A DNA stretch of 64,000 bases from positions 13,544 through 77,543 of the forward strand of contig JANYCI010000013.1 in the NCBI GenBank assembly GCA_025360325.1, given 5' to 3'. Below the pieces are notes generated by a model. It was not told the DNA's origin. It saw nothing but the letters and a program-made list of their open reading frames with translations, and ran no database searches. Within the stretch, counting starts at the first letter, position 1; each line of letters begins with the position of its first letter. Of the stretch, positions 5,236-60,855 are shown in pieces. The DNA comes from Limisphaerales bacterium (GTDB lineage Bacteria > Verrucomicrobiota > Verrucomicrobiia > Limisphaerales > UBA11358). The translations under genes were made by a program, and so were the position numbers.

Positions 5236-5240
5236 TAAAA

Positions 5241-6251
5241 ATGGTCCGCCTCAAAGACATTGCCCAGCTTGCCAACGTTTCCGTGATGACCATCTCCAAG
5301 GCGTTGCGTGACGCGCCAGATGTATCCGAGGCGACGCGCGCGAAAATAAAAAAACTCGCGCACGATCTCGGTTACACGCCCAACACCAGCGCGCAAGGTT
5401 TGCGGACGAACACCACGAAGCTGCTCGGCCTCGTCATCCCCTCCACGCTGAATCCGATTTACGCCCGCATCGTTTCTGCCATCGAGGAACGCACCCACGA
5501 TTTCGGCTACGACCTGCTCATCGCGCAGACGCAAAATAAATCCGAGCGCGAAGACGCCTGCCTGCGCCGCCTGCTCGCGCGCCGCGTGGACGGCTTACTC
5601 ATCACGCCGGTGTATCGTTTCGAGGCCGAGGCGCGCATCTATCAGGAAATAACCGCCCGGAAAATCCCGTCCGTGCTGCTCGGCCCGCCCGCGCCGTTCT
5701 GCAAAAATTTTCCCAGCATCGAGACGCAGGAACTCGCCGCGAGTTATTCGGCCACGAAACATTTGCTCGATCTCGGCCACAAAAAAATCGCCTATCTCAC
5801 TGGCCCGCCCGCTGCGCCATGGGCCCACGAACGCTTTGAAGGTTATCGCCGCGCACTGCGCGATGCCGGTTTGCAGCCGGATGATGAATTTGTTTTTCAA
5901 GCGGGCAGCACGATTGAAGACGGCGTCCGCGCCACGTTGCAGATGGTGAATGAAGGTTGTAATCCAACCGCCGTGCAAGCCGTGAGTGATCTCGTCGCCA
6001 TCGGCTGTGCGGAAACGTTGATGCAGCAAGGCGTGAAAATTCCCGAGGACATTTCGCTCGTCGGTTTCGGGAATGTGCTCGCGGCGGAATATTTTCGCGT
6101 GCCGCTCACCACCGTGCGCCAACCGAAGCATCGTCTGGGCGTCGCGGCGGTCGAAGCGTTGATGAAACTCATTCGCAAGGAACCGCTCGAACTCTCACCG
6201 CTCCCGGCGGAACTCGAAGTGCGGAAAAGTTCCGCGCTGCCGAAAAGTTAA
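5241..6251 (+). CDS. LacI-family transcriptional regulator
   Basis: N-terminal HTH MVRLKDIAQLANVSVMTISKALRD...ATRAKIKKLAHDLGYTPNTSAQGLR, then a periplasmic-binding-like sugar domain. The ORF-track start at 5184 reads through the heptamer repeat and is unlikely. Confidence 0.9.
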   Translation: MVRLKDIAQLANVSVMTISKALRDAPDVSEATRAKIKKLAHDLGYTPNTSAQGLRTNTTKLLGLVIPSTLNPIYARIVSAIEERTHDFGYDLLIAQTQNKSEREDACLRRLLARRVDGLLITPVYRFEAEARIYQEITARKIPSVLLGPPAPFCKNFPSIETQELAASYSATKHLLDLGHKKIAYLTGPPAAPWAHERFEGYRRALRDAGLQPDDEFVFQAGSTIEDGVRATLQMVNEGCNPTAVQAVSDLVAIGCAETLMQQGVKIPEDISLVGFGNVLAAEYFRVPLTTVRQPKHRLGVAAVEALMKLIRKEPLELSPLPAELEVRKSSALPKS

Positions 6252-6253
6252 GC

Positions 6254-6341
6254 GGAAGTTTGTTGGGGCAAGCGTCCTCGCGAGCCGCTTGGTCTGACGA
6301 CGCCCCGGCTCGCGAAGACGCTCGCCCCACCAGCAAACTTC
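6254..6341. repeat. 88-bp imperfect palindrome between convergent genes (terminator-like REP element)
   Basis: ggaagtttgttggggcaagcgtcctcgcgagccg (6254..6287) versus cggctcgcgaagacgctcgccccaccagcaaacttc (6306..6341), which are near reverse complements. Confidence 0.75.
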
Positions 6342-6759
6342 ACTTTTTCCCTTCACCAACCCGGCAGCTTCCGTTTTCACATTTTGATCCGCCAAACCAG
6401 CCACCGATTTTCACCCGGTTCCGCGCGAACCATTCGTAGAATTTATCCGTGAGCCAACGCAAGCCCGGCCAGCTCGTTGGCGCAACCAGCCAGCCGAGAC
6501 CAACCAACCGATACGCCGCGCGAAACGTCGCCACGCGCGTGACGACTCGGCCATCGGGGAAAATGCCGTGCATCACGCCTTCCACTTCCGTTTGCGTGAG
6601 GCCATAAATCGCCGCATCAAAACCGGGCGCGGAAATATCTTCGGTCGCCAATTTGCCTGCACGGTCACGACGCTTCAACCACGCGACTTCGCGGCAGCAA
6701 AATGGACATTGCCCATCAAACAATAATTTTAATTGCCAGTTGGTTTTAGTTTCCTTCAT
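6340..6759 (-). CDS. thiol-disulfide oxidoreductase DCC family (DUF393)
   Basis: LLFDGQCPFCCREVAWLKRRDRAGKL is the typical DCC/DUF393 N-terminal motif. Confidence 0.8.
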   Translation of the reverse strand: MKETKTNWQLKLLFDGQCPFCCREVAWLKRRDRAGKLATEDISAPGFDAAIYGLTQTEVEGVMHGIFPDGRVVTRVATFRAAYRLVGLGWLVAPTSWPGLRWLTDKFYEWFARNRVKIGGWFGGSKCENGSCRVGEGKK

Positions 6760-6841
6760 GCGTCGCTAATTTTCACCACACAGCAATGATTGACCTGAAC
6801 CTTGGCTTTGGCAACATAACGAAAATCTTTTTACAAAACTT

Positions 6842-7876
6842 ATGCCACGCACTGTCACTCTCTTCACCGGCCAATGGGCTGATCTCTCCCTCGCGCAACT
6901 CCTGCCGCTCGTCAAAAAAATGGGCTACGACGGCGTGGAACTCGCCTGCTGGGGCGACCACTTTGAAGTGGATCGCGCTTTGACCGAACCCGATTATTGC
7001 AAAAAGAAATGGGCGTTGCTCAAGAAATACGGACTCACCTGCCACGCGATTTCTTCCCACCTCGTCGGCCAGGCCGTGTGCGATTTGATTGACGAACGTC
7101 ATCAGGCGATTCTCCCCGCCGATGTCTGGGGCGACGGCAAACCTGAAAGCGTTCGCCAACGCGCCGCCGAAAAAATGAAAGCCGCCGCGCGTGCCGCCCG
7201 AAAATTTTTCGATGCGAAACCCGGCGCGAAGAAAGGTGAAGTAGCGGTCGTCAATGGTTTCACCGGTTCTTCCATTTGGCACGCGCTCTACGCGTTTCCG
7301 CCGACGAGCCAGAATTTTTTGAACAAAGGTTTTGCCGATTTCGCGAAACGCTGGACGCCGATTCTCGACGTGTTTGAAAAAGAAAACGTCAACTTCGCGC
7401 TCGAAGTGCATCCCACGGAAATCGCGTTTGACATCGCCTCCGCCAAACGCGCGCTCGAAGCGGTGAAACATCATCCGCGCTTCGGTTTCAATTACGATCC
7501 GTCGCACCTCGGTTATCAAGGCGTGAATTATGTGAAATTCATTCGCGAATTTTCCGACCGTATTTTCCACGCGCACATGAAAGACGTTTGGTGGGGCCAC
7601 GGCGATGGCAGCGTGGGCGTGTTCGGCGGCCACACGGATTTTACGGACGCGCGCCGCTTTTGGGATTTCCGCTCGCTCGGTCACGGCGACATCAACTTTG
7701 AGGAAATCATTGTCGCTCTGAACGACGTGGGCTATCGCGGCCCGCTCTCGGTGGAATGGGAAGATGGCCGGATGGATCGCATCCACGGCGCGACCGAAAG
7801 CTGCGCGTTCGTCCGCGAACTAGATTTCGCGCCCAACCAAGCGGCGTTTGACGCGGCATTTTCCAAGCAGAAATAA
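6842..7876 (+). CDS. sugar phosphate isomerase/epimerase (xylose isomerase-like TIM barrel)
   Basis: [40 protein letters not shown]: the typical AP-endonuclease-2 / TIM-barrel pattern. Confidence 0.8.
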
Positions 7877-9960: not shown

Positions 9961-10524
9961 ATGATTTTAGAAATTGTAAAATACGGCTCCCCAGTGCTTC
10001 GCAAAAAAGGCGAACGCATCGAAAGTGTCACGCCGGAAATCCGCAAGCTCATCACGGATATGTTCGAGACGATGGAGGAAAACCACGGCGTCGGTCTCGC
10101 GGCGCAGCAAGTGGGCGTGGCGAAATTACTCACGGTGATTGATGTGCGCGCGGTGACGGATCGGCCTTCCACGCTGGAACTCGACGGCGAGCCGGCAGAC
10201 GTGGCGAGCATCATGCCGTTGGTGTTGATCAATCCTGAAGTGACGCCGGTGGGTGAACGGGTGAAGGGCAGCGAGGGCTGCTTGAGTTTCCCGGAAATCT
10301 ACGCGGAGATTTCGCGGCCCGAATCGGTGGATGTGAAAGCGCTCGATGCGAAGGGAAAACCCATTTCATTTCGTTGCGGCGGTTTGCTGGCGCGCGCGGT
10401 GCAGCATGAGACGGATCATTTGAACGGGCTGCTGTTCATTGATCGCATGGAGAAAAAGGTGAAACAGAAATTACAGGCGGAGCTGGATGAATTGCAGGCG
10501 GAGACAAAGGCGGCGAAAAAATAG
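9961..10524 (+). CDS. def: peptide deformylase
   Basis: GVGLAAQQVG, EGCLSFP, QHETDHLNG: the three canonical PDF motifs. Confidence 0.95.
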   Translation: MILEIVKYGSPVLRKKGERIESVTPEIRKLITDMFETMEENHGVGLAAQQVGVAKLLTVIDVRAVTDRPSTLELDGEPADVASIMPLVLINPEVTPVGERVKGSEGCLSFPEIYAEISRPESVDVKALDAKGKPISFRCGGLLARAVQHETDHLNGLLFIDRMEKKVKQKLQAELDELQAETKAAKK

Positions 10525-14404: not shown

Positions 14405-15085
14405 TCACACGCCGCTGGCGGGCGGCTGGGTGCGTTGAATGAGCGTGGTTTCCAAATTTCGCCGCAGACTGCGTTCCACCGCATGAGCGATCTCGGCCTC
14501 GGCACGCATGAGCTTGTGCAACGCGTGGCGCTCGAGCGCGAGATAGTGGATTTCGTTTTGAGCCGCAACCGTGGCGGTAGCGGGCTGACCGCTGGCGATG
14601 CTGATTTCACCGATCAAACTTTTGGGGGGACACGTTCCGACGGTCGCACCGTTCACCTGCACTTCAACGGAGCCGGTGTTCAGAAAACACAGGTGCGAAA
14701 CGACTTCGCCCTGCCGCGTCAGTTCGGTGCCCGCCGGGGCGGTGCGCCAATGACCGGTCTTGAGCAGCCGGCGCATCTGGTGAGGTTCGAGCTGGGGGAA
14801 AATCCGCTCATAAAAATCGCGGTCGTCCGGGCTGAAGCGGGCAGTGACGTTGCGATATTTAATGATGAGTATCTGCACGACGTTCACGAGCGTGAAGACG
14901 GTTTCCCAAAAAACCCCGACCGGATCGTGCAGCCACCAAGTGCTGTAAATAAATCCAGCCACGCCCGAAGCAATGGCGAGCAACCGCAGCCAGAGCATAT
15001 TCGTCATCATCATCGAGATGACCAGCAGGATGTATTCAATGTTGCCGACGAGCAGCCGGTTGAGCAGGGCAGAATCAATGTGCAT
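14405..15085 (-). CDS. membrane protein with C-terminal cyclic-nucleotide-binding-like domain
   Basis: The N-terminal ~90 aa are hydrophobic (ILLVISMMMTNMLWLRLLAIASGVAGFIY...). A cNMP-like beta-roll follows (LTRQGEVVSHLCFLNTGSVEV...IGEISI). The start is ATG 15085 or 15139. Confidence 0.65.
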   Translation of the reverse strand: MHIDSALLNRLLVGNIEYILLVISMMMTNMLWLRLLAIASGVAGFIYSTWWLHDPVGVFWETVFTLVNVVQILIIKYRNVTARFSPDDRDFYERIFPQLEPHQMRRLLKTGHWRTAPAGTELTRQGEVVSHLCFLNTGSVEVQVNGATVGTCPPKSLIGEISIASGQPATATVAAQNEIHYLALERHALHKLMRAEAEIAHAVERSLRRNLETTLIQRTQPPASGV

Positions 15086-15202
15086 GGCAGTGGGCAATCT
15101 GCCCGGGAGAAATTCAAACCGCAATCCAACGCTTTGCAATTAAAATCCCGCGCTGGAAAATTGAAGCGTGCGTCCGCGATTTTTTTTTTGCAGATTCACC
15201 CT

Positions 15203-15742
15203 ATGCAGAATGTCCGGCAACTCCAAAACCTTGCGCTCATCGGCTTCATGGGCACAGGCAAAACCTCCGTCGGGCGGCTGGTCGCGGATGTGCTGCATTT
15301 TGAGTTTGTGGACACGGACGAACTCATCGAGGAATACACCGGGCGCAGTATCGCGGACATCTTTGCGAAAGACGGCGAAGCGGCTTTTCGTTTGCTGGAA
15401 AAAAAAGTCGTCGAGGAACTGGCGAATAAAACTCAAACGGTCATTGCCACCGGCGGCGGCCTCCCGACCAATCCCGAAAATCTCGTCCGACTAAAATCCC
15501 ACGCGCTCGTTGTCTGCCTCTGGGCGTCCACGGAAAAAATCTGGGAACGCGTCCGGCACCAGTCGCACCGTCCCCTGCTCCACGATCCCGATCCGCAGAA
15601 AAAAATTCGCGACCTGCTCGCCGCCCGCGAACCTTTCTACCGTCAGGCGGACGTGCTGGTGAATACCGGCCTGCGTTCGCCGCGCGAAGTCGCCCAGCAA
15701 ATCGCCTTGCAGTTCAAGCTCGCCAAGCGCACGCGTCCATGA
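15203..15742 (+). CDS. aroK: shikimate kinase
   Basis: Walker A GFMGTGKTSVGR, DTDELIE, FRLLEKKVV, ATGGG. The ORF-track N-terminal extension to 14435 is antisense to the neighbouring gene. Confidence 0.9.
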   Translation: MQNVRQLQNLALIGFMGTGKTSVGRLVADVLHFEFVDTDELIEEYTGRSIADIFAKDGEAAFRLLEKKVVEELANKTQTVIATGGGLPTNPENLVRLKSHALVVCLWASTEKIWERVRHQSHRPLLHDPDPQKKIRDLLAAREPFYRQADVLVNTGLRSPREVAQQIALQFKLAKRTRP

Positions 15743-38267: not shown

Positions 38268-40802
38268 ATGACAAAAAGATTTCTTCCGTATCTGATCCTG
38301 TTGCTGCTGCCGGGCGTGCTGCTTGGCGCGCAACCTTTGCCGTCGGCAACCGGTCTTCACCGCGAACGACTGCTCATGAATTTCGGCTGGCAGTTTTATC
38401 TTGGCGACGCGCCGGATGCGGGGGCGCAATTTGATTATCCTGAATTTGCGCGGCTCGATAAAAATCGTCCCGATGACGATGCGCAGGAAGCCAAAAATGC
38501 TCCGCTACGTGTGGATGCCGCCGCCGTAAATCTCGGCAAAAATGTTTCCTTTGTGCAGCCCAGCTACGACACCGCCAACTGGCGCACGCTCGATTTGCCG
38601 CATGATTGGCTGGTGGAACTACCATTCGAACATCGCGGCGACAAGGATCACGGATTCAAGCCGGCGGGGAAACATTTCGAGACCAACAGCATCGGCTGGT
38701 ATCGGCGCACGTTTGAATTGCCGGCGGGCGATAAAGGCCGCGCGTTGTGGATTGAATTCGATGGCGTGTTTCGCAATTGCCTCGTCTGGCTCAACGGCGT
38801 CTGTCTTGGCCGCAATGTCAGCGGCTACGGCAGTTTTTATTATGACATCAGCCGTGCGGCCAATTACGGTGGCACGAACACGCTCGTCGTGCGGGTGGAC
38901 GCGAGCCGTTTTGAAGGCTGGTTTTACGAGGGTGCGGGCATTTATCGTCACGTCTGGCTGGTGAAAACCGGCGCGGCACATGTCGCGCATTGGGGAACTT
39001 TCGTGACCAGCACGGTCATCAATCAAGACGCGGAAGTTTCGGCGGAGACAACTTTGCGAAATGATTTGAGCACGCCGGTGACGGCACGGATTGTTTCCAC
39101 CGTCGTGGATTCCACTGGTCTTGAAGTCGCCACCGTCACGCAAGCCGCAATGAAAATTGAAGGCGGCGCGGAAAAAATCGTGTCGCAGAAAGTAAAAGTT
39201 TCCGGCGCAAAACTTTGGTCATTGGAAAATCCTTATCTCTACAAACTTGTTTTACGCGTCGAAGTGGACGGTAAGGCATCCGACGTTTTTGAAACGCCCT
39301 TCGGCATTCGCACCATCAAGTGGGATGTGAATGAGGGTTTTCTCTTGAACGGCAAACGCGTTTTCCTCAAAGGCACCGCCAATCATCAAGATGCGGCGGG
39401 CGTGGGCATCGCCGTGCCGGACGCGCTCAATGAATGGCGGTTGTTGCAGTTGAAAAAATTCGGCGTCAACGCCTATCGCACCGCGCATGGCCCGGCTACG
39501 CCCGAACTCCTCGACGCCTGCGACCGCCTCGGCATTCTGGTTTATACCGAGCAACGTCGTCTCGGACACACACCTCAATCGTTCGGCGATTTTGAGAATC
39601 TCATCCGCCGTGACCGCAATCATCCCAGCATCATTGCGTGGGGCATTGCCAACGAAGAGCTGACCGCGCAGGGCAAAGAAGAACCCACGAAAACCCTGGC
39701 GGTGCCTAATCAAGACCTCGTGCATCGTCTTGACCCGACGCGACCCGCGACATGCGCGATGAATTGGGACTGGGGAAACGGATTTTCCAAGGTTCTCGAC
39801 GTGCAGGGTTTTAATTATTGGTGGCAAAGCACGCATTCAAAAAATCGCGGCAAGTTTCTCGACCTGGATGAATTTCACGTCGCATTTACGAACACGCCGG
39901 GCTTTGGTTCGGAAGAAGCCAGCACCGTCAGCACCCGCGGCATCTACGAAAACGACAAGACGCGTGGCTACGTTTCCGCCTACGACCGCAACCTCCCGCG
40001 CGGCGGCGACGCGGCGCGCGAATGGGGTTCGACCGCCGAGGCGTGGATGAAACATTACGCCGCGCGTCCGTGGCTCGCCGGTGCGTTCGTGTGGACCGGC
40101 TTTGATTATCGCGGTGAGCCGACGCCATATTCGTGGCCGAACGTCAGTTCGCATTTTGGCATCCTCGACACCTGCGGTTTTCCGAAGGATAATTTTTTTT
40201 ATTATCAGGCGTGGTGGACGGATGAGCCCGTGTTGCACATCCTCCCGCACTGGAATTGGCCGGGCAAAGAAGGCCGGGAGATTGAAGTCTGGGTTCACAG
40301 CAATTTCGAGGCGGTCGAACTTTTTCTGAACGGCCAGAGCCTCGGTAAAAAGAATATGCCACGCCTTTCGCATCTCGAATGGAAGGTCGCGTATCAGCCC
40401 GGTAAACTAGAAGCGCGCGGCTATAAGAACGGAAAGGTGGCCGCGAAGACAATTGTCGAAACTACCGGCGAGCCCGACAAACTCGTGCTGACTACGGATC
40501 GCAAAAGCATCAACGCCGACGGCCAAGATGTCGCCGTCATCAATGTTTCTGCGATTGATGCACAAGGCCGTGAAGTTCCCACGGCGAATAATCTAGTGAA
40601 GTTTGAAATCACCGGGGCAAAAATCCTAGGTGTCGGCAACGGCGACCCAAGCTGCCATGAATCCGACAAAGGCAGCGAGCGCAGCCTGTTCAACGGTCTT
40701 GCCCAAGTTATCGTTCAAACCAAAACCCCCGGCCAATTGAAACTTGTCGCCCAAGCCGACGGGCTGAAATCTGCCACGGCCACGCTCACCTCAAAAAAAT
40801 AG
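38268..40802 (+). CDS. glycoside hydrolase family 2 (beta-galactosidase/glucuronidase-like)
   Basis: LDLPHDWLVE, IGWYRRTF, FDGVFRNCLVWLNG, KGTANHQDAAGVG, NAYRTAHGPATPELL, RDRNHPSIIAWGIANEE. Signal from ATG 38268. Confidence 0.9.
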   Translation: MTKRFLPYLILLLLPGVLLGAQPLPSATGLHRERLLMNFGWQFYLGDAPDAGAQFDYPEFARLDKNRPDDDAQEAKNAPLRVDAAAVNLGKNVSFVQPSYDTANWRTLDLPHDWLVELPFEHRGDKDHGFKPAGKHFETNSIGWYRRTFELPAGDKGRALWIEFDGVFRNCLVWLNGVCLGRNVSGYGSFYYDISRAANYGGTNTLVVRVDASRFEGWFYEGAGIYRHVWLVKTGAAHVAHWGTFVTSTVINQDAEVSAETTLRNDLSTPVTARIVSTVVDSTGLEVATVTQAAMKIEGGAEKIVSQKVKVSGAKLWSLENPYLYKLVLRVEVDGKASDVFETPFGIRTIKWDVNEGFLLNGKRVFLKGTANHQDAAGVGIAVPDALNEWRLLQLKKFGVNAYRTAHGPATPELLDACDRLGILVYTEQRRLGHTPQSFGDFENLIRRDRNHPSIIAWGIANEELTAQGKEEPTKTLAVPNQDLVHRLDPTRPATCAMNWDWGNGFSKVLDVQGFNYWWQSTHSKNRGKFLDLDEFHVAFTNTPGFGSEEASTVSTRGIYENDKTRGYVSAYDRNLPRGGDAAREWGSTAEAWMKHYAARPWLAGAFVWTGFDYRGEPTPYSWPNVSSHFGILDTCGFPKDNFFYYQAWWTDEPVLHILPHWNWPGKEGREIEVWVHSNFEAVELFLNGQSLGKKNMPRLSHLEWKVAYQPGKLEARGYKNGKVAAKTIVETTGEPDKLVLTTDRKSINADGQDVAVINVSAIDAQGREVPTANNLVKFEITGAKILGVGNGDPSCHESDKGSERSLFNGLAQVIVQTKTPGQLKLVAQADGLKSATATLTSKK

Positions 40803-45740: not shown

Positions 45741-48700
45741 TTGCCGCGCGCGGCCTTGTTTTTACCTTTGTTGGCAGACATGAGCGCGGCTTCGCAAGAT
45801 TTCACGCTCAACAACAGCAACATTCTTGGTGCCAATCAAATTTGGAATGTGGCCGCCGGTCGAATCCTTTCCGTTGCCAACGCCGGTCATCCGGGATTGA
45901 TCAAAGGCACGGCGAGCCTGACGAAAAATGGCAACGGCACTTTGTTATTGCGCGGGTTGAACAGCTATAGTGGCGGAACGATTGTGAACGGCGGCATTTT
46001 GCAGATTAACAACGGAACGACCGGCACGGGCACCAGCGGCACCAACAGCGCCGGCATCGGCGGCATGACCCTCAACAACGGCACCACGCTGCAATATGTC
46101 GCCGCCGTGAACATGGGCAATACGCTCACGGTCAATGGCACCGTATTCGTGGATATGAATTTAATTGGCGGCAGCACGCTGGCGAATGGGTCATGGATTA
46201 GCAGCGGCGGCACGGTGATCATCACGAACGCCATTTCCGGCACCACCTTCACCATCGGCGGCAACGGTGTCGGCGGTGGAAACATGAACAACTTTACTGG
46301 CGCAGTCGTGATGGCCAGCGTGACCAGTCAAGGGGTTCCGCTGACAAACAGTTTGCGGCTCAATGATAGCGGCGGAAACAACAACGTCGGCAATGCCAAT
46401 GCCTCCTTTGATCTTGGAAACGGCGTGGTCAACCTGACCGCGCGAAATCGCTCCGGCAGCACGATCAGTTTGGGCGCATTGAGCGGCGGTTCGAGCACTC
46501 TCGTGAAAATTGGCAGCAGCGGCAGTGCCGGCACCACTTACTCGGTTGGCGGACTGAATACCTCAACCACCTTCAACGGAATTTTTGATGGCACGGGAAC
46601 GACCGCCGGAATGTTTCTGGCGCTGACCAAAGTCGGCAGTGGTGTTTTCACGCTTACCGGAACCAATACCTATAATGGGACGACGGCGATCAACGCGGGG
46701 GCGTTGCAGGTTGGCAATGGCGGCACTTCCGGCCAGCTGGGAACTGGCGGCGTGGTCAATAATGCAACGTTGATCTTCAACCGCGCCGATGATGCTGCGG
46801 TCGGAAATGCCATCAGCGGTTCGGGAACCGTAATCAAAACTAACGTGAATACTTTGACCTTGAATGGCACCAACAGCTCCTCGGGCGCGACAGTCATCAG
46901 CCAAGGCACTTTAGCTCTTGGGGTTTCTGGGTTGATGTCTTGCCCGGTCTTCGTCGCCAGTGGTGCGAGGTTTGACATCTCGCAAAATCCCGCCTTCACC
47001 TTGAATCAGATTTTATCCGGCTTCGGCACGGTGACGGGATTGGTGACAGCGGTGGGCGGAACCATCAGTCCCGGAGGCAGCGGTGCGGCGGGCACGCTGA
47101 ATTTTTCAAACAACGTTACGGAAACGGGCAACGTCAATCATCAATTTGAATTGTCCAGCGTCGGCGGCACTAACGATCTCATCAACATCGTCGGCGACCT
47201 CACCGTTACGGGCACAAATATCATCAGCTTGAGTCATTTTGGCGGCGGAACGATTCCGAACGGCACTTACACGTTGTTCACCTACAGCGGCAATCTCAAT
47301 GGCGGCGTCACTAACTTTTCGGCCAGCGGCGTCGGCAACATCGCAGTGGTGACCAATGATGTGGCGAATCAAATCCGCGTGGTCATCACCCAGACTCCGC
47401 GTGGGGCAACAAATTTATCCTGGGTGGGTGATGGCGGCGCGAATAACTGGGCGGTTGGTGTCAGCAACTGGATCAGTGGAGCGACCTCCTTTGCCTTTCA
47501 GACCGGCGACAGCGTGCGCTTCGATGCAGCCGGCGTCGCGAATCCAACGGTGAATTTGAACGTCTCGGTCTCGCCGACCGCAGTGGTGGTGAGCAATACG
47601 ACGGCCTACACCATCACTGGTGGCGGCAACATTGCCGGGTTGACTGGATTGATTAAAACCAACTCCGGAACTTTAACCGTGCTGACAACCAACAGTTACT
47701 CCGGCCCGACGATCATTGGCGGCGGAACGCTCGTGGTCTCATCGGTCGCCAATGCCGGTTCGCCTTCGGGAATCGGTGCGGCCAGCAGCAACCCGACCAA
47801 TCTGGTGTTCTTTGGAACGACCTTGAACTACAACGGCGCAGACAGCGCCACTGACCGGGGTGCAACTTTGAATGGAACCGGCGGCATTATTGGCGTAGTG
47901 CCGGGAGTCACGCTTGAGCTGGACGGTGCCCTTACCGGTCTCGGTGCGCTGATAAAATCGGATACCGGCAATTTGACCATCAATAACAGCGTGCTTCCAA
48001 ACACCTACAGTGGCGGCACGATTATCAGCAACGGCGTGCTCGTGCTCGGCGGCAACAATGCCAACAGTTCCGGGCTGGGCACTAACTCGGTGACTTTCTA
48101 TGGCGGCACGCTCCAATTGTTTGGCTATAATGGCAGCACCGCCAACAACTACCTTTCGCCGCAAAACCTTTTGGTGGTGCCAGCGGGCCAATCGGGAACC
48201 GTGCAGATGTTTCCGCGCGGGCCTAATAACGCTTCCGGGCTGGCCAGCAAACTGGTTGGCGCAGGCACCATGAACTTGGTGGTGAATTATGTTCGCGATA
48301 ACATGGGCGGTGACTGGTCCGCCTTCACCGGCTTGATCAACGTGACCGGAAAAAATATTTCCGGTGATGAATTCCGCATTGATAATGCCGCTGGTTTCTC
48401 GAATGCCGTCATCTACCTGAACAGCGGTGTGATAATGGATCGCGCCAATACGGCGAATGCCACGATTGATATCGGCGAGCTGGCCGGGATCAATGGAGCC
48501 ATCATCGGACCAGGCACCGGCAGTGCCGCCAATCCCACCTGGCGCGTGGGCTGGAAGAACACCACCAGCTCCTTCGCTGGAACCATTGCCAATGATGGGA
48601 CGGCTTCTTCTATCACCAAAGTCGGCACTGGCAAATGGATTTTGTCGGGACAAAATACTTACAGCGGTTCCACCATCGTGAGCAATGGGGTGCTGGCGCT

Positions 48701-49448
48701 CGTGAATGATCCGGTGTCGTTGACGGATGGTTCCATCGGAAGCAGCGCGAACATCTTGATCAAATCCGGGGCGTTCTTGGATGTCATTGGCCGCAGCAAC
48801 GGGACGATGCCGCTGAATTCCGGTCAAGTCATCGGCGGCGAGGGAACCCTTCGCGGCATTCTTGACACCACAGCGGGTGGCACGGTTTCGCCCGGCGGCG
48901 GCATCAGTGGTGCGGTTGGCACATTGACGGTAACTAATTCCGTCAATCTCGGCGGCACGGCGTGGATGAAACTGAATCGTGGTGCCAGCCCGAACAGTGA
49001 CAAACTGTCCGCTCCACACATCGCCCTCGGCGGCGCGCTGTTGGTGACAAACATTGGTGCGGCGCTGCACGTCGGCGACAGTTTCACCCTGTTCAATGGC
49101 ACTTTGTCAGGAACGTTCAATGGCAATGTGACGTTGCCCAACGGTTACACTTGGAATACCAACTCGCTCGAAACGAGTGGAACTATTTCCGTGACCGCCG
49201 TCGCCGCCCCGCCGGTCATCAGCAGTGTGGACTATAGCCAATTGTCCAGCGGTATGCTGGCGTTCAATGCCACCGGCGGCGCACCGGGCGGCGCGTTTTC
49301 CATCCTGACCAGCACGAACCTCTCGTTGCCGCTGTCAAGTTGGACCACGGCGGCGACCGGTAATTTTGATGGCAGCGGCAATCTCACCGCCTTTTCCGTG
49401 ACGGTGAATCCGGCATTGCCGCAAAGTTTCTTCATACTAGCTCAATGA
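45741..49448 (+). CDS. autotransporter-associated beta-strand repeat (PATR) giant protein with the shared C-terminal tail
   Basis: Dozens of ~30-aa units, e.g. [30 protein letters not shown] and [33 protein letters not shown] start 45741. The signal peptide is weak ([18 protein letters not shown]). Confidence 0.85.
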
Positions 49449-52187: not shown

Positions 52188-52847
52188 TTAACTTTGCGCG
52201 CTGCCGACATGGCGCAAATGAACCGTCACAGCTTCCGTGCGGGAGCGGACGTGTAATTTTTCATAAATGTGGCGGATGTGTGTGTGAACGGTGGCGTAGC
52301 TGATTTTTAGGGCGTCGGCGATCTCCTGGTAAGTGTGACCTTGAGCCAGCCAGTCAATCACCTGCTGCTCGCGCAGCGAAAGTTTCTGGTAATCCTGCGA
52401 TGGGTTGATGATTTTTTGGAAGGAGGCAACGACTTTGCGGGCGATGTGGCTGGTCATGGGCGAGCCGCCAGCGTGAACTTCGCGGATGGCTTCGATAATC
52501 TGTTCGGGTGAACTTTGCTTCAACAGGTAGCCGCTCGCGCCGGACGAGAGCGCGCTGAAAATGATGTTGGTGTTTTCATAAACGGTGAGCATCACGACTT
52601 GAATTTTCGGCAAAATTTCTTTAAGCCGGCGCACGCAATCCACGCCGTTCATGCCGGGGAGATTGATGTCCATCAGCACGACTTCCGGCTGGGAGACAGG
52701 AATCTCCTTCAGCGCATTTTCTGCGTCGGGATGCTGGCTCACACAGACAAAACCGGCCGCGGAATCCACCATCCGCGCGAGGCTGCCGCGGACTTTCACG
52801 TCGTCCTCGACGATGGAAACTTTTATGGCGTTTTTTTCATTCTTCAT
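52188..52847 (-). CDS. NarL/FixJ-type response regulator (REC + LuxR HTH)
   Basis: VSIVEDD, VVLMDINLPGMNG, LSLREQQVIDWLAQGHTYQEIADALKISYATVHTHIRHIYEKLHV. Confidence 0.92.
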   Translation of the reverse strand: MKNEKNAIKVSIVEDDVKVRGSLARMVDSAAGFVCVSQHPDAENALKEIPVSQPEVVLMDINLPGMNGVDCVRRLKEILPKIQVVMLTVYENTNIIFSALSSGASGYLLKQSSPEQIIEAIREVHAGGSPMTSHIARKVVASFQKIINPSQDYQKLSLREQQVIDWLAQGHTYQEIADALKISYATVHTHIRHIYEKLHVRSRTEAVTVHLRHVGSAQS

Positions 52848-52869: not shown

Positions 52870-55800
52870 TTATTTCAATTCCATCTGCCGGTGGCTGCCG
52901 GTCGGCACGGTCAGTTCCACCTGCGTGCCTTGGCCGGGCGCGCTGGTGATGACGAAGCTGCCGCCGATTTCTTCGAGCCGGCGGGCGAGGTTGCGCAGGC
53001 CGTGGCCGGAAGAAAGACGTTCCTGGTCCGGCGCGCTGCCATTGGAACGGCCGGGCGTGAAGCCGACGCCGTTGTCCTTGATAACGAAGACGAACGCGCC
53101 CGGCGGCAGCTTGAGTTGAAACGAAACCTCCGTCGCGCGCGAATGTTTCACGACGTTGTTCAACGTCTCCTTCACGGCGAGAAAAAGACTGTGGCGTGTC
53201 TCGGCGGACAAAGCGACGGCGGGCGGCTGCGGCGGCAAATCCAGCCGGCAGCGCAGGTTCGCCGCCGTGGAAAATTCCTGGAAAAATTTTCCCGCGTAGG
53301 TCACGAGGCCGTCCAGCGAGTCATTCTCCGGGTTGATGGCCCAGACGATTTCATCCATCGCGCGGACGAGAGTGCGCGCGGTTTCGGAAACCTGCGTCAA
53401 ATCCGTCTGCATTTGCTCCGGCGATTCGCGGCGCGCGAGCGAGCTTTGGAGCATGATTTGTGTCAGCCCCGCGCCGAGGTCGTCGTGGATGTCCTGGGCG
53501 ATGCGCTCGCGTTCACGTTCGATGGCGCGCTGCTGTTTGAGCCGCTCAAGTTTCCGGCGCAGGCTGCGCGTCGCCGCCTGCCGCACGCCGACGGCGACCG
53601 CGATGATGACGGCGACACCCGCGAGTGTGGCAAACCACCACGTCTGCCAGAAGAACGGCAGTTGTTTGAGGGCGAGGGTTGCGCCTTGCTCGTTCCACAC
53701 ACCGTCGTTGTTGCAGGCGATGACTTGAAATTGGTATTGGCCCGGCGGCAGCGGACCGTAGTGCGCGGCGCGTTTTGTGCCGGCCTCAACCCACGTGTTG
53801 TCAAAGCCTGCGAGCCGGTAGCGGAAGCGCACCTTGTCCGGCGCGGTAAAGCTCAAGGCGGTGAAAATGAAATCAAATTGATGGCCGCCCGGCGGAATTT
53901 TCACCGCGCCGACAGTCGGAACTTTTTTCCCGTCCACCAAAAGATTTTCCAGCGCGACCGGCGGCGGCAGGTGGTTGGGCCGCACTTCATCCGGGCTGAC
54001 GGCGACGACGCCCTTGGACGTGGCGAACCAAAGTTTGCCGTCGTGTGCGCGCCAGGCGGACGGCTGGTAGTTGCCGGAACATTCCAGTGTCGGCAGGCCG
54101 TCATACAAACCATAGGCGGTGCAGGGCAGCGATGGGATTTTCCCGCTGTCAAGCGCGGTGAACGAGTCTTTTGGCAGATAAAAAATTCCCTTGTGCGAGC
54201 CGAACCATAATTTGCCGAGGCCGTCGTCAAGAATCTGGCAGATGACATCGCTGGGCAGCCCGTCGCGTGAACTGTAGCGGGTGAATTTTCCGTCCTTGAA
54301 ACGCAACAGCCCGCCGCGAAAAGTTCCGGCCCAAATCGCCCCGTCGTCGTCCGGTAGCAGCGACCAGATGGCTTGGTTCTCCGCGACGCTGTCCGGCTTG
54401 AAGGCGGTGAAATTTCCGTCAGCGAATTTGTAAAGCACGCCGCCGCCCGTGCCGATCCAAAGGTTGCCCTGCCGGTCTTCGGTGAGCGCGCGAACATCCG
54501 TGCGTGCGAAGCCGTTCCACTGGCCGTAATTCACCGCGACGCCGTTGGTCAGGCAGGTCAGTTGCGTCTGCCGTCCGAACCAGCTGCGGCCACGGCTGCC
54601 GGCGAGGATGGATTTGATGCCGTGAATTGCATTTGTGCTGCGGACGATTCCATTGTTTTCCAAAACAAATAAATCCTCATGGTCGGCGCTCAACCACAGC
54701 CGGCCCTGCGCGTCCGGGCTGGCGGAAAAAAACGCGTCGCGGTTCGTCGCGGCGGGCAGCGCGAAATGTTCAAGCACGCCGTCGCGCCAGCGGTCGAGGC
54801 CGGCGCTGAGAGTTCCAATCCAGATGTTGCTGCGGGCGTCCTCGCAGACGGTGGCGACGGCGGAACCGGCGGCGAGGATTTGAAATTGTTTTTTCCGCAG
54901 GCGCACAAGACCGCCCCGGTCAATGCCCGCCCAGATGTTGCCTTCGCGGTCTTCAAACCAGCAGTTGACGCGGTTGCCGGGCAGCCCGTTGGCGGCGGAA
55001 ATTCTTTCAGTTTTTCCACCCGCGCTGGCATGAAACAATCCTTGCCCGAAACCGCGAATCCAAACATCGCCAGCGCGTTCCTGATAAGTGCCGATGTAAA
55101 TCGAGGCGGCTTGGAGCAGGTCGCTCCACGAATCCACCGTGGCAATCCACCGCCGGTTGACCGCGTGGCGAACTGTCCCGTTGGCGAACGCCCAGAAATC
55201 TTTTCCGGTCGTGCAAAGGAGCAGTGTGGTGTTGACCGCCGGTTCACCGTTCGTCGGGCTTTCGTCCTCAAAAAAATTTCCGTTCCAACGCGCGATTTTT
55301 TTTTTCCGTTCCGACCCACACTTGGCCGTCGCGGTCGGTGGCGAGGTAGTTCGCTTTCTCGCCGTCCAGCCCGGAGTGGTCGGGGATGGTGACGGCGTTA
55401 GTGCCAAGGATGCGGCCGACGGTGCCGCCGCGATATAGAAACCATGGCGTGCCACCCGCGTCCTGGCGGAAAGAGTTGCCCGTGATTTTTCCGTTCAGGC
55501 TGACGGACTGCCAATCGCCGGGCGGATTGGAATTTTCCGCACGATACAGGATGTTGCCACCCAGCGTCGCAAAAAAAACCTGGTTCGATCTGGAAAACAG
55601 CGCAGACACCTGGCCGCCCTGCCATTCGTGGGTGAAGACACCGTTCCGCAGCGCCGTCAGCGATCCGTCGTAGTCGTTGATCCAGAGCGTGCCGTGTGCG
55701 TCGGTGAAGAGGGCCACGATGCGCGCGTGCTTGAGCGCGGGCGTGTTGAGCGGATCAAAGGTGACGAACCGCACACCGTCGAACCGCACCAAGCCGTTGT

Positions 55801-56005
55801 AAGTGCCGATCCAAAGATAGCCGTCCGGCGTCTGCGTGATGGCGCTCACGGAACTGTCCGGGAGGTCGTTGTCGCTCGTCCAGAGATCAATCAAGTAGTC
55901 GGATGACTCCGCGCCCGCGCCGCGCCATCCGGCCAGCAACATCAAGGCGATGATGACGGGCGAGAAAATTTTTCGGCGCAGCGGGAACACGCAGTGAAAT
56001 TGCAT
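52870..56005 (-). CDS. beta-propeller (Reg_prop/Y_Y_Y-type) sensor histidine kinase, HisKA_3 class; reading frame broken at a 10-nt homopolymer
   Basis: Two ORFs (55268..56077 and 52870..55455) overlap at T10 55296..55305. There are repeated LWIGT/IWAGT propeller motifs, a TM segment WWFATLAGVAVIIAVAVGV, H-box IAQDIHDDLG, and HATPase GHGLRNLARRLEEIGG. Confidence 0.85.
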
Positions 56006-56289
56006 CACGCAAAATTCAAAGACAAGATTCAATGCGCCGCACGCGCAAAAGTTTTTACGGCTCGTCGCCATCAACACAATTGGCGATGCCCCCGCTGGAA
56101 GTAACCATCACTGGCGATTTTCAATCCTGCGTCCGCTGGTAAGTTGATCGGCATAAACACCCGTTCAATCAGCCATGCTGTCATCCAGCCGCTTGTGCCA
56201 GCCGCACGCGGTTTGTCTTGCACGGGCTGATTAACGCCTGTCGCAAAGCATCATCAACCCCGTCACAAAACCAACCGACCCATACAAAA

Positions 56290-59200
56290 ATGAAACCCAA
56301 CACATCCATTTGCATTCGAAATATTTTACTGATGAGCGGTCTGCTTTTGCTGGCGGGCGTAGCCAATCTTGAGGCGGCTACTTTCACCACGGTGGCGGGC
56401 GCCAGCGGCAACTGGAGTTCCGGTGCCGTATGGGCTGGCGGTGGGGTGGCTGGCGGGGTCGGCAACATTGCGCAGTTGGGAGCGGGCGGCAGCACGTTCA
56501 CGCTGGATATTGCCACGAACATCGGAGTGATCAATGACGGTCAAGCATCGGCGCGCGCTTGGGCCATCAATGCCAGCGGCTCAATTGCAATAACGATGGA
56601 CAACACCGGCAACGCCGTGAACAACCCGGCCGGAACCCTCAACGCCTACATCGGCGAGTCCTCCAGCGGCACGATGACTTTCAACCCAAACATCATCATC
56701 CAAAACACGGATCTGGATTTTGCCAATACCGGGTCCACCACCCCCACTTTGGCCATTGGCGTTTTGGGGACGTCCACCATCACCGCCACGAGCGCGCGGA
56801 ATCTTTTCATCCGGCAAAATCAAGCCACCACCACCAAAGCCATCAACATCAACAGCAGCATCGGCGGCAGCGGCAGCAGCGTCATCACCATTCAAAACGT
56901 CGGCACTGGCGGCGGCGTTTCAGCCATGAACCTGAACGGCGTGGTCGGGCCAAATGCAGGCGTCGTCCAGAACAGTGCCAATTCGATTCTGTCGTTGAAT
57001 AACGCGGCGAACAACTACACGAACAGCACGATCATCACGCTGGGCACCTTGAGATTGGGCGCGGCCAATGCCGTTCCGAGCGCTAGCAGCGTGGATGTCA
57101 CTGGCACATTCAATTTGGTCAGCTTCAGTGACACCATCGGCGCCCTGACCGGTGCTGGCACGGTAAACGCATCGAGCGGCACGCCCACCCTGACAGTCGG
57201 TGGTGGCGATGCCAGCGGCACGTTTAGCGGCATCATCCAAAATTCTGGCGGCACAATGTCTGTGGCCAAGACCGGCAACGGCACGCAGGTTTTGAGTGGC
57301 GTGAATACTTACGGTGGCACCACGACCATCAACGGCGGTTTCCTCAACGCTGGTGTGGCGGATGCCGGCACCGGCCCGTTCGGCAGCGGCGGCAGCATCG
57401 CGTTCGGTGGCGGCACGTTGCAATACTCCGGCGCAAATAATTTCGATTACTCCGCCCGCTTCAGCACGGCAGCGAACAATGCCATCAGCATTGACACCGC
57501 CGGACAGGCCGTGACTTTTGCCACCGCGCTCACCAGCAGCGGCGGCAGTTTGAAACTCACCAACTCGACCGGCACCGGCACGCTGACGCTCACGGCGGCG
57601 GCAACTTACAGCGGCAACACCGCCATTAATGGTGGCACGTTGAGCTTGAGCGGCAGCGGCGCGCTGGCGAGCAACTCCACGGTGAGCATCGGTGCCGGAG
57701 GCACGTTTGATGTCTCTGCGCTGGCGAGTCCCTACACGCTCGGCAGCAGCGCAACTTTGCGCGGTAGTGGCTTCGGCACTTTGGTCGGCACCAACGCGGC
57801 CCGCATCGTCGCCGCTTCCGGTGGGATTTTTGACGCGGGTTCGCAACCGATTTCTCTGACGTGGAACGGCGCATCATCCGGCACGGACAACACGCACCCG
57901 TCGCTCCTCGTTTCGCAAGGCACGCTGAACTTGAACACCAATCCGATCACGGTCGTAGTGCCGGGAACGGCGTTGGATGTCGGCGTTTACACTTTGATTT
58001 CCGCCCCGGCTATCAGCGGAGTTGCGCCCAATCCCACGCCGTCCTACACCGGCGGCAACGGCGTTGGTCTTGGAAAAGTCGGCGTGATTTCTGTCAGCGG
58101 CTCCACCGTGATCCTAACAGTTAGCGCGGCTGGAGGAACGGTTGGCACCTGGGCCAACGATGTTGACGGCAACTGGACGGACGGAACCAAATGGAGCAGC
58201 AACCCTAACGTGCCGCATCTGGCGGGCGACGCCGCCACGCTAGGTATCGGCTCGGCTTTACGCACAGTCACGCTGAACGCGAATCAAACCGTCAGCACTT
58301 TGTCTCTGACCAATGCGAACTCATTCGTCATCGCAAACAGCGGCAAAGCGCTGACGCTCGACAACACCGGCTCCGGCGCGTCGGTCAATGTCATTGGCGG
58401 CACGGCGAACAACATCCAAACCGCCGTGGCCTTGAAGGACAACGCCGTGGTCACTGTCGGCAGCGGCAAGTCGCTGGCATTTTCTGGAACCGTCAGCAAC
58501 ACCGCCGCCGCCAAAACCATTTTGTTCAACGGTGCTGGCACGAACATTCTTTCCGGCGCCAACAGCTACGGTCCGGCGGCTGGCACCGTGGGCACCACCG
58601 TCAACGCCGGTGGCACGTTGCGCTTGGGCCACAGCAGCGCGCTCGGCGCGGGTGATTTGAGCGTGTCCGGCAACAGCACATTGCAGGCGGGCGCGGCGGT
58701 GAGCGTCGGCAATAACATCACCATCGCTGACACGACTACGGTGGACAGCAGCGGAAATAATTTTGCTTTGGGCGGCGTCATCAGCAGCGCGGGCGGCCTT
58801 ACAAAAACCGGCAACGGCACGCTCGCGTTGAACGGCAATAATACTTACACCGGCAACACGACGGTGAACGGGGGCACGTTGAGCCTTTCATCGCCGAACA
58901 ATTTTCTGAACAGTCCGAGCATCATCCTCAACGGCGGCGGACTGCTCGGCACCGCAACTTTCACCGCCGCCAACAACATCGGCATCGGCGCAGCCTCCGG
59001 CGCAGTCGGCACGAATGCGTTGATTGACGCGGCCAGCGGACAGGTCGTCACGTTGAGCGGCGTCATCGGCACGGCGGGCAACGGCGGTGGGAACGGACTC
59101 ATCGTCAACAGCGGCGCGGGCAACAACGGCACGCTGGTTCTCAGCGGAGCGAATACATTCAACAGCACGACGGTCATCTCGAACGGCACATTGCAAGTTG

Positions 59201-60855
59201 CGAACTCGCTTGCGTTGCAAAACAGCGGGTTAAATTACAATACGGGCACGCTGATCTTCGATGGCAGCATCACGGCGGCCACGCTTGCTGGAATAAACTC
59301 CACTAACAGTTTGAGAACTTTGGCGCTGACCAACACTGCAGGCGGCGCGGTGGCATTGACGGTGGGCGGAAATAATGCGCCTGTCGTTTTCACCGGCAAT
59401 TTGAGCGACGCTGGTTCGCTCATCAAAGCTGGCAGCGGCACACTGACGCTCAACAATCCCACTTACACCGGCAGCACCACGATCTTCGGCGGCTCGGGCG
59501 CGACGACCATCAGCGGCGGAAATTTCGGTTCGCTCGCAAGCGCGATTACGATTGGTGCCAACTTCTTCCTGACCGGCGGCACGGCCACGGCCTCCGCGTT
59601 CAACCTGGCCACCGCTGGCGGGCAGACCGGCGTGGGCGCAACCATCAACGGCACGGCGAATCTCACAAACACGGCGACAACCATCGGCAGCGGCGGCAAC
59701 ACGGCAGGAGCCATGACCCTCAACTCTGCTGGCAACGTGAATCTGGGAGATGTGAAGGTCAACAAGGATCAGGGTGGCACCACCAGCGGCCTGATCATCG
59801 CAAGCGGAAATGTTTTCGCGACCAGCGTCAACGTCGGCCAAAGCGGCACCGCTGCGAGGGCGTCCGACATGACCATTACCGGCGGAACGTTGACGGTTGC
59901 TGATGTGACGCAGACCGGCAAGTTTGCCGTCCACTGCGGCGCGGGCAATGGCACCCTGACGGTGAGCGGCGGCGCGCTGAATTATCTGGGAACAGATGGA
60001 TTGCAAATGTCCATCGGTGCCGGTCCCAGCATCGCTGCCATCATCGGCGGCACGGCTACGCTCTCCGGCGTCACGCTTAATTCTGGCAGCACCGCTACCA
60101 CATCCACTCTGACGGTGGCCGGCACGAACAATCCGACCCTTTATTTGGGTAGCGTGGGGCTGATCATCAATCTGCCAAGTCCCACCGTGGCAGCTACATT
60201 TGGTAACGGCACCATCGGTGCCTTGGCCGACTGGGCGTCTGAGGCGCCGATCACGCTCACAAATAATCCTATCTTCAAAGCCGCCGATGCCGCGAACGTG
60301 CCGCATAGCATCACGTTGAGCAATGTTCTGTCCGGCACGGGTAATCTCACCAAAACCGGCAATGGCACTTTGATCTTGATGGGTGCGAACACTTACACCG
60401 GCAACACCATCGTCAGCGCGGGCACGCTGGATTTGTTGCAGGCATCGCTCTTCACCAATTCCACCGTCTCGGTTTCCAACAGCGCGACCTTACGGCTGGA
60501 TTTCTCCGGCACAAACATCGTGGCCGGTTTGATTCTGAATGGCGTCAGCAAGGCGGCAGGCGTTTATTATAACGGCACCGATCCGACGTTCCTGACCGGC
60601 ACTGGATACATTCAAGTTCAGCCGCTTGTTTCTCTAGTGCCGACAAACATCACCACGACAGTTTCTGGCAGCACCCTCACGTTGTCATGGCCAGCGGATC
60701 ACCTCGGCTGGCATCTGCAAATCCAGACCAACTCGCTTGCTGATGGCTTCGGCACGAATTGGGTCACGCTGCCCGGTTCGGACACTGTGACTTCAACGAA
60801 CATGACTATTGATCCCGCCAATGGCAGCGTGTTTTACCGCATGGTGTATCCGTAA
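56290..60855 (+). CDS. autotransporter-associated beta-strand repeat (PATR) giant protein with the shared C-terminal tail
   Basis: Signal MKPNTSICIRNILLMSGLLLLAGVANLEA. Many PATR units (VAKTGNGTQVLSGVNTYGGTTTINGGFL, LTKTGNGTLALNGNNTYTGNTTVNGGTLSL). It ends ...GSVFYRMVYP. Confidence 0.9.
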   Translation: MKPNTSICIRNILLMSGLLLLAGVANLEAATFTTVAGASGNWSSGAVWAGGGVAGGVGNIAQLGAGGSTFTLDIATNIGVINDGQASARAWAINASGSIAITMDNTGNAVNNPAGTLNAYIGESSSGTMTFNPNIIIQNTDLDFANTGSTTPTLAIGVLGTSTITATSARNLFIRQNQATTTKAININSSIGGSGSSVITIQNVGTGGGVSAMNLNGVVGPNAGVVQNSANSILSLNNAANNYTNSTIITLGTLRLGAANAVPSASSVDVTGTFNLVSFSDTIGALTGAGTVNASSGTPTLTVGGGDASGTFSGIIQNSGGTMSVAKTGNGTQVLSGVNTYGGTTTINGGFLNAGVADAGTGPFGSGGSIAFGGGTLQYSGANNFDYSARFSTAANNAISIDTAGQAVTFATALTSSGGSLKLTNSTGTGTLTLTAAATYSGNTAINGGTLSLSGSGALASNSTVSIGAGGTFDVSALASPYTLGSSATLRGSGFGTLVGTNAARIVAASGGIFDAGSQPISLTWNGASSGTDNTHPSLLVSQGTLNLNTNPITVVVPGTALDVGVYTLISAPAISGVAPNPTPSYTGGNGVGLGKVGVISVSGSTVILTVSAAGGTVGTWANDVDGNWTDGTKWSSNPNVPHLAGDAATLGIGSALRTVTLNANQTVSTLSLTNANSFVIANSGKALTLDNTGSGASVNVIGGTANNIQTAVALKDNAVVTVGSGKSLAFSGTVSNTAAAKTILFNGAGTNILSGANSYGPAAGTVGTTVNAGGTLRLGHSSALGAGDLSVSGNSTLQAGAAVSVGNNITIADTTTVDSSGNNFALGGVISSAGGLTKTGNGTLALNGNNTYTGNTTVNGGTLSLSSPNNFLNSPSIILNGGGLLGTATFTAANNIGIGAASGAVGTNALIDAASGQVVTLSGVIGTAGNGGGNGLIVNSGAGNNGTLVLSGANTFNSTTVISNGTLQVANSLALQNSGLNYNTGTLIFDGSITAATLAGINSTNSLRTLALTNTAGGAVALTVGGNNAPVVFTGNLSDAGSLIKAGSGTLTLNNPTYTGSTTIFGGSGATTISGGNFGSLASAITIGANFFLTGGTATASAFNLATAGGQTGVGATINGTANLTNTATTIGSGGNTAGAMTLNSAGNVNLGDVKVNKDQGGTTSGLIIASGNVFATSVNVGQSGTAARASDMTITGGTLTVADVTQTGKFAVHCGAGNGTLTVSGGALNYLGTDGLQMSIGAGPSIAAIIGGTATLSGVTLNSGSTATTSTLTVAGTNNPTLYLGSVGLIINLPSPTVAATFGNGTIGALADWASEAPITLTNNPIFKAADAANVPHSITLSNVLSGTGNLTKTGNGTLILMGANTYTGNTIVSAGTLDLLQASLFTNSTVSVSNSATLRLDFSGTNIVAGLILNGVSKAAGVYYNGTDPTFLTGTGYIQVQPLVSLVPTNITTTVSGSTLTLSWPADHLGWHLQIQTNSLADGFGTNWVTLPGSDTVTSTNMTIDPANGSVFYRMVYP

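Follow-up and report, generated by a model that had tools for sequence, protein, structure and literature searches.

A difference of one base in the length of a poly(A) tract separates an intact from a frameshifted allele of a sensor histidine kinase gene in an uncultured Limisphaerales-like verrucomicrobium, presumably of soil or fresh water. The frameshifted allele lies in a stretch of 64,000 nucleotides (nt) from assembly GCA_025360325.1 (contig JANYCI010000013.1, positions 13,544 to 77,543 of the forward strand), which we call the window and to whose first letter all coordinates below refer. In the window ten A's stand on the coding strand exactly where the reading frame of the kinase breaks, and public contigs from near-identical genomes carry either the same ten A's (A10) or, in one case, nine (A9) and an uninterrupted gene. 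The species is polymorphic for A9 and A10, a natural on/off polymorphism at a slippage-prone site. We consider it probable that A10 is an accidental and possibly leaky loss-of-function allele, produced by slippage from A9 and now segregating in this organism.

The broken reading frame and the kinase it interrupts

On the coding (minus) strand the sequence around the tract, which corresponds to a plus-strand T10 at 55296-55305, reads gtg tgg gtc gga acg gaa aaa aaa aat cgc gcg ttg gaa cgg aaa ttt ttt tga. A preliminary description of this DNA, made from the letters alone, had placed an A10 at the frame break of the kinase, and its coordinates and sequence are correct. The upstream frame (open reading frame, ORF, 55268-56077) closes with ...VWVGTEKKNRALERKFF and a stop codon whose end is at 55268, 28 nt past the tract; the downstream ORF lies in the adjacent (+1) frame, open from 55455 to 52870 and reading ...ERKKKIARWNGNFFEDES..., and both of these features likewise agree with what had first been described. 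The peptide WNGNFFEDESPTNGEPAVNTTLLLCTTGK is encoded 3' of the tract. If one A is removed (A9) or two are added (A12), a single ORF of 1044 residues results from ATG 56005, the one continuous kinase that had been predicted for these two lengths; from the first GTG, the A9 version is one ORF of 1068 codons. The lengths A8, A10 and A11 are out of frame, such that a change in length toggles the frame inside the ORF.

A 10-nt A/T run by itself is within chance expectation for the window: two were observed against 1.17 expected from dinucleotide-preserving shuffles, and at least two occurred in 30 of 100 shuffles. The non-random feature is the position of the tract, exactly at the frame break of a kinase whose halves are collinear with its orthologues, and no gap is needed at the junction when the A9 reading is aligned to full-length orthologues.

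From its N-terminus the A9 reading has a signal-peptide-like segment, strong matches to Reg_prop (PF07494, E 4.6e-39) and Y_Y_Y (PF07495, E 4.3e-16), a single strong hydrophobic helix at about 787-812, HisKA_3 (PF07730) at 831-893 including ...RIAQDIHDDLG..., and HATPase_c (PF02518) at 939-1035. By these domains the predicted product is a Reg_prop/Y_Y_Y periplasmic-sensor histidine kinase of the HisKA_3 (NarX/DesK) type with a NarL-family partner. The propeller with Y_Y_Y, the series transmembrane helix-HisKA_3-HATPase_c and an adjacent response regulator are all present at the locus, and the uninterrupted frame is found in the A9 allele only. More than 7000 homologues were found and, among the matches listed, nearly all are single proteins of about 1000-1130 residues. 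At 90% identity the protein cluster of this kinase consists of three sequences: one of 755 residues (P0004), one of 245 (P0121) and the full-length protein of 1044 (P0122). The first of these is the gene called downstream of the break, which comprises only 755 residues and starts from an internal GTG at 55137, 131 nt past the stop.

In sequence searches the sensor part matched the periplasmic domains of BT4663 and BT3049 of Bacteroides, and the kinase part matched DesK in the PDB. The AlphaFold model of an orthologue with 77% identity (P0001; mean pLDDT 81.6, about 90 across the periplasmic part) contains two seven-bladed propellers, an Ig-like domain, a transmembrane helix and the kinase, and its top structural match is BT4663 (Foldseek E 1e-44, TM 0.71 on the target). 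The window kinase thus resembles Bacteroides thetaiotaomicron BT4663 (PDB 4A2L/4A2M) and BT3049 (3V9F) in having two seven-bladed Reg_prop propellers followed by Y_Y_Y (phmmer E 3e-42), whereas those proteins are hybrids of kinase, receiver and AraC domains and the present one, at about 20% identity, is a DesK/NarX-like HisKA_3 kinase with a separate NarL-type regulator.

The tract itself codes for E234-K235-K236, the counterparts of D224-K225-K226 in P0001, where the model predicts a turn between strands 219-223 and 227-230, in about the fifth blade of the first propeller; the A10 product would therefore stop in the middle of that propeller. The preliminary description had also held that A9 restores a propeller-blade-like motif, which is right in part. 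In both frames the Pfam Reg_prop repeat is unbroken, covering profile positions 1-23 of 24 and closing with ...WVGTE, so that the repeat itself does not depend on tract length; A9 brings back the beta-strand that follows (IARW) and all of the protein beyond it.

A further homopolymer lies close by in the same blade: 19 nt after the A10 there is a T7 run (plus-strand A7 at 55270-55276) which, followed by GA, forms the stop of the N-terminal fragment (TTT TTT TGA). In the correct frame this stretch reads N-F-F-E, and the T7 run is identical across all contigs.

Two alleles in near-identical backgrounds

All tract lengths reported here are those of assembled contigs. Five of the assemblies have A10 and one has A9; apart from the tract, their identity is at least 99.95%, and the contigs differ only by two synonymous single-nucleotide polymorphisms (SNPs), 54031 T/C and 52293 C/T. 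The window combines A10 with 54031 T and 52293 C. The same tract length occurs with T at both positions in a Logan contig of 7421 nt from SRR20627842 (L001; the same contig was present in two samples), with C at both positions in contig JAYUML010000442.1 (10,021 nt) of the NCBI metagenome-assembled genome (MAG) GCA_043762705.1 (L004/L168), and with 54031 C in a Logan contig of 4244 nt from SRR20627849 (L002), which does not extend to 52293. A9, with an intact kinase, is carried by a Logan contig of 4243 nt from SRR23617308 (L003), also with 54031 C and also ending short of 52293. A10 is present on three SNP haplotypes. A comparison of strains or metagenomes had been suggested as a check in the preliminary description, and in these public contigs it returned both lengths.

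The tract is the sole indel in about 36 kb of aligned near-identical sequence, which also holds A7, A8 and T7 runs; three additional contigs, confined to the 3' part of the locus, were included in this alignment. Contigs reached by way of the response regulator add samples SRR20627847, SRR22198310 and SRR23617210, none of which spans the tract. The exact DNA pattern TGGGTCGGAACGG-N6-14-TCGCGCGTTGGAA had no matches in the genome_contigs or the metagenome_contigs collection, and the species is therefore taken to be absent from both. A literature search with the run and assembly accessions returned no match.

Orthologous sites indicate how the run may have come about. The position of the tract could be located in 55 further related loci, drawn from both genomes and metagenomes, and one more orthologue was looked up separately. 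The run of A's at this site is 7 in three loci and at most 5 in the others, and in none of the 56 other homologues does it exceed 7. In the closest orthologue (L005, 84% identity) the site reads GAG AAA AAA ATT, in one with 77% identity GAT AAA AAA ATT, and in two with 75% identity GAA AAG CAG ATT and GAG AAT AAA ATC. The long run is, judging from these alignments, specific to the lineage of this organism, and because the orthologous runs are of 7 or fewer, A9 arose within it when GAG or GAT became GAA, a synonymous or a conservative substitution.

Codon preference provides a sufficient reason for such a run. Among 39 long ORFs of the window, whose sequence has 56% GC, lysine is encoded by AAA 520 times and by AAG 247 times (AAA 68%), glutamate by GAA 464 times and by GAG 274 times (GAA 63%), and Lys-Lys is written AAAAAA in 40 of 52 cases in window genes. 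Preferred codons (GAA AAA AAA ATC) at the conserved E-K-K-I turn therefore give G-A9-TC automatically, and selection for a repeat is needless. The genes of the window also hold sense-strand runs of six A's (41), seven (17) and eight (4), a genome-wide supply of near-threshold slippage sites.

Two side observations concern the homologues used here. In L005 (ENA ERZ26871208, contig_62092_np1212) the kinase gene at 4001-6972 is split into 648 and 353 residues elsewhere than at the tract site, which is A7 and in frame, and the neighbouring PATR gene (1-3548) is split as well, into 709 and 567 residues; these splits are probably assembly indels, because the contig name suggests a long-read assembly. 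Four loci of genome_contigs (L010, L011, L017 and L045) come from MAGs labelled 'uncultured Bifidobacteriaceae' or 'Bifidobacterium sp.' (binchicken or SRP co-assemblies) and carry kinases of the verrucomicrobial Reg_prop/Y_Y_Y type, 38-52% identical to the window kinase over its full length. Their Bifidobacterium-type labels look wrong.

Origin and consequence of the A10 allele

Under the explanation that we favour, the additional A would stem from slipped-strand mispairing during replication. In many bacteria, transcriptional slippage and hypermutability are noticeable once a run reaches about nine A's or T's (PMC1088944). Translation of the A10 allele would depart from the native sequence after residue 236, halfway through blade 5 of the seven-bladed first propeller, and yield an exported fragment of 245 residues with about 4.5 blades, a sensor that presumably cannot fold. 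The downstream 808 codons appear to have neither a signal peptide nor a good start, such that the sensor would be lost and the kinase and response regulator uncoupled from their signal.

This loss need not be complete. Since both alleles carry at least nine A's, a leaky rescue is possible: slips by RNA polymerase (-1 or +2), or of tRNA-Lys by +1 on AAA-AAA-A, would restore the exact wild-type protein from A10 and probably supply some full-length kinase as a minor product. The A10 allele may then be strongly dimmed and not fully OFF. Ribosomal frameshifting by -1 was rejected as a route because it enters the wrong frame (that of A8/A11), and no stimulatory RNA structure was found 3' of the tract, where the predicted fold is weaker than that of shuffled sequence (z = +1.55). 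Reversal of the insertion would be possible in principle, but we read the site as a mutational hot spot that arose by accident and not as a dedicated switch under selection.

The haplotypes are compatible with a single event. A9 and A10 are the only lengths on record, and three of the four possible combinations of SNP 54031 with the tract were seen (C-A9, C-A10 and T-A10). One insertion therefore suffices, along the path C-A9 to C-A10 to T-A10, followed by 52293 T in L001. The outgroup state at 54031 is CTC in the nearest orthologue and CTT in the next, leaving its polarity ambiguous; with three combinations only, recurrent mutation is not inferable from a test of the four-gamete kind. As the A10 lineage has gained two synonymous SNPs, the broken state has persisted.

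Several points weigh against reading A10 as an accidental loss of function. A consensus error from low coverage is conceivable in the lone A9 contig. No second disabling mutation is present in the A10 allele, and both SNPs on A10 backgrounds are synonymous; a lesion-free A10 is also what would be expected of a useful gene that is switchable or rescued by slippage, and two SNPs have no statistical weight in the matter. In the transcriptomes of E. coli and Buchnera, moreover, indels in A/T runs are mostly insertions (PMC5574713), and since rescue of A10 needs -1 or +2, such rescue may be weak.

The alternative to which we would give most thought, although we consider it unlikely, is a true contingency locus: a selected and reversible slipped-strand switch that turns the sensor kinase and its regulon ON and OFF at high frequency, the regulon, perhaps with the giant PATR surface protein and nearby glycan genes, being placed under stochastic bet-hedging. 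Much of what such a locus should contain is present. The run reaches or exceeds the threshold usually given for A/T tracts and lies within an ORF whose frame is toggled by its length, ON (A9) and OFF (A10) are both natural and polymorphic among near-identical genomes, and the OFF allele has no other lesion. Phase variation is, however, defined by the twin traits of a high switching rate and reversibility (PMC11868660), and the tract is neither conserved among the homologues nor over-represented beyond composition, being the default outcome of codon preference in a window whose count of 10-nt runs is at chance level. No more than two lengths have been seen, and exact look-ups of the proteins predicted for A7, A8, A11, A12 and A13 found none in the collection, a weak negative because gene callers may pick other starts. 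One event explains the combinations at 54031, where C in the nearest outgroup fits the path given above, and the SNPs later gained on A10 backgrounds point to a long-lived OFF state. The fuller proposition, in which a free-living environmental verrucomicrobium uses a coding poly(A) as a reversible stochastic sensor switch that controls the PATR surface protein and possibly glycan use, seems to us somewhat more doubtful still.

Precedents for such switching are real, and the locus resembles them at the level of the lesion. Experiments have demonstrated that a C6/C7 frameshift in bvgS of Bordetella pertussis occurs often and can be reversed (Stibitz et al. 1989, PMC1891110). As in bvgS, where the regulon is silenced, expansion of a homopolymer by one base within a two-component sensor-kinase ORF truncates the kinase of the window and would silence its regulon, and both lengths occur in populations; by contrast, bvgS has a poly-C tract and belongs to a host-restricted pathogen, whereas the present tract is poly-A and lies in an uncultured environmental verrucomicrobium. 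The A/T tracts of Campylobacter jejuni flgR/flgS (PMC3930126) and the poly(A) of Staphylococcus aureus agrA (PMC6686034) undergo one-base frameshifts from which revertants have been isolated and sequenced, the reversion frequency for agrA being about 0.1%, where background mutation runs at about 7e-9 (PMC6686034). These cases share with ours an A/T homopolymer in a two-component gene, a frame shifted by plus or minus one base and an off state that has no other lesion and could be repaired at the same tract.

Nine- to ten-nt homopolymers are classic sites of indel error. One could accordingly suppose a sequencing or assembly artefact, with one true length and the other miscalled in one data set, and the occurrence of A9 in a single contig would fit. 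We regard this as improbable. A10 is repeated in at least four assemblies besides the window and recurs on three SNP haplotypes, with no other indel in the roughly 36 kb of alignment despite its A7, A8 and T7 runs, which makes an assembly error in A10 very unlikely. That A10 is the product of an error-prone platform is very unlikely too, because ORFs of 1125-1545 residues in the window are intact, the other runs are without indels and a control homopolymer is constant: the T10 at 15180-15189 reads T10 in all three assemblies that span it, the A9 sample not being among these. The sequencing error that the preliminary description had offered as one cause of A10 is accordingly disfavoured. Were the A9 contig the one in error, A10 would still stand, and we would have a fixed frameshift instead of an artefact of the window.

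Programmed recoding is more improbable again. Under this proposal A10 is functional, and slippage or +1 frameshifting sets a fixed ratio of short propeller to full kinase, as the A9 of Thermus dnaX does. It would account for A10 being the commonest allele, the run exceeds the 9-nt slippage threshold (PMC1088944), and +1 re-pairing of tRNA-Lys on AAA AAA A gives the exact wild-type sequence. The tract does share with the 9A/9T slippage sites of Thermus dnaX, insertion sequence (IS) elements and endosymbiont genes a sense A run of at least nine in an ORF and a nearby stop in the shifted frame, and from sites of the Thermus dnaX type a mix of truncated and full-length products is expected (PMC1088944, PMC5574713). 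Recoding sites that are in use are conserved among homologues, however, whereas the run and the two-ORF layout are not, close orthologues being single ORFs that lack the run. There is also the intact A9 allele, and neither the weak downstream fold nor the usual -1 shift on a heptamer, which leads to the wrong frame, fits a programmed site. A fixed pseudogene, raised in the preliminary description as another outcome, is excluded at the species level by the A9 allele of SRR23617308.

Gene neighbourhood and significance

The organism is a verrucomicrobium: the best genome hits are MAGs of Limisphaerales, Verrucomicrobiia and 'subdivision 3', and the window encodes typical PATR and N-methyl/DUF1559 proteins. 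Coordinates of the kinase, its tract and the surrounding genes are collected below.

Features of the kinase locus and its neighbourhood in the window
Feature	Coordinates	Strand	Description
A10 homopolymer, frameshift site	55296..55305	-	codons GAA AAA AAA A(A)TC = E234-K235-K236-I237; in-frame allele A9
N-terminal kinase fragment P0121, 245 aa	55268..56005	-	signal-peptide-like N-terminus, ~4.5 propeller blades, 9-residue out-of-frame tail NRALERKFF
Rest of kinase, +1 frame, I237 to K1044	52870..55296	-	remaining propeller 1, propeller 2, Y_Y_Y, predicted transmembrane helix ~787-812, HisKA_3, HATPase_c
NarL/LuxR-type response regulator, intact, cognate	52188..52847	-	PF00072 Response_reg + PF00196 GerE; 22 nt 3' of kinase stop
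Giant PATR-repeat protein, autotransporter-passenger-like	56218..60855	+	PF12951, five repeats; divergent from kinase
Truncated GH2 remnant, ORF of 228-253 aa	51399..52085	+	convergent with response regulator; no TIM barrel
Intact GH2, 856 aa	38232..40802	+	
Alpha-L-fucosidase, 549 aa	40812..42461	+	
DUF4450 protein, 1125 aa	42347..45724	+	

Of 163 related loci, 147 have a response-regulator gene adjoining the kinase homologue. The three closest orthologous loci (L005, L006 and L007) keep both the regulator and a divergent giant PATR protein beside the kinase; their PATR proteins are 61-85% identical to that of the window, which is a candidate target of the two-component system. The genes 3' of the regulator vary between species, and transposases are found there in two relatives. 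The GH2 remnant on that side aligns to residues 182-392 only of its intact paralogue, with 37% identity. It is also present in L001, L168 and L169, a case of local gene decay beside the two-component system.

The preliminary description had cast the kinase as the sensor of a glycan locus, which this arrangement does not bear out: the assignment follows from the fold family, the conserved neighbours are the response regulator and the giant PATR protein, and the adjacent GH2 is truncated. The intact GH2, fucosidase and DUF4450 genes lie 7-16 kb from the kinase, in a glycan-degradation cluster (36.6-45.7 kb) that is followed by another PATR protein (45741-49448) and two N-methyl/DUF1559 pseudopilin-like genes. 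Glycan sensing by the kinase is plausible by analogy with the fold of BT4663.

Contigs from independent short-read assemblies (L002, L003 and L004/L168) all end at 56672, inside the giant PATR gene, and the opposite end of L168, at 46652, falls within the other PATR gene. A DNA repeat shared by the two genes would be a possible cause of the breaks at 56672; none was found by blastn, and variation between strains or a repeat located elsewhere in the genome may be responsible.

Homopolymers of at least 5-6 nt throughout the window were scanned for fusions of ORFs by a change of plus or minus one base, and besides the kinase tract three sites were flagged. Two of them (15534-15539 and 15599-15605) were dismissed as an ordinary overlapping ATGA stop/start of aroK and queG. 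The third is an A6 at 10003-10008, and the scan otherwise showed no clearly broken gene. The only other 10-nt homopolymer, the plus-strand T10 at 15180-15189, is intergenic, 13 nt 5' of the ATG (15203) of aroK (shikimate kinase) and between aroK and a divergent cNMP-binding gene (14405-15139, minus strand). It may serve as a control for homopolymer error, as may A8/T8 runs such as those at 55571-55578 and 40193-40200, or may itself be a promoter or 5'-untranslated-region tract; one contig (L176) has a SNP 2 nt before the aroK ATG.

Homopolymer frameshifts that switch two-component genes are already well known, and the present one will not surprise a specialist unless it is reversible. Its more immediate consequences concern how such genomes are read. 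A gene that a MAG annotates as a pseudogene is here a real allele and not an assembly error, and an intact allele is available, which is the proper basis for functional inference. The context of the sensor is also corrected, its conserved partner being the giant PATR-repeat protein and not a glycoside hydrolase cluster. A strong preference for AAA and GAA in a genome of 56% GC creates slippage-prone coding runs, of which this tract is an instance. If it is true that the tract flips both ways, it would join the few cases on record in which a regulator of a free-living environmental bacterium undergoes repeat-mediated phase variation, and would extend contingency bet-hedging beyond host-adapted pathogens in a form that could be traced in metagenomes as mixtures of A9 and A10.

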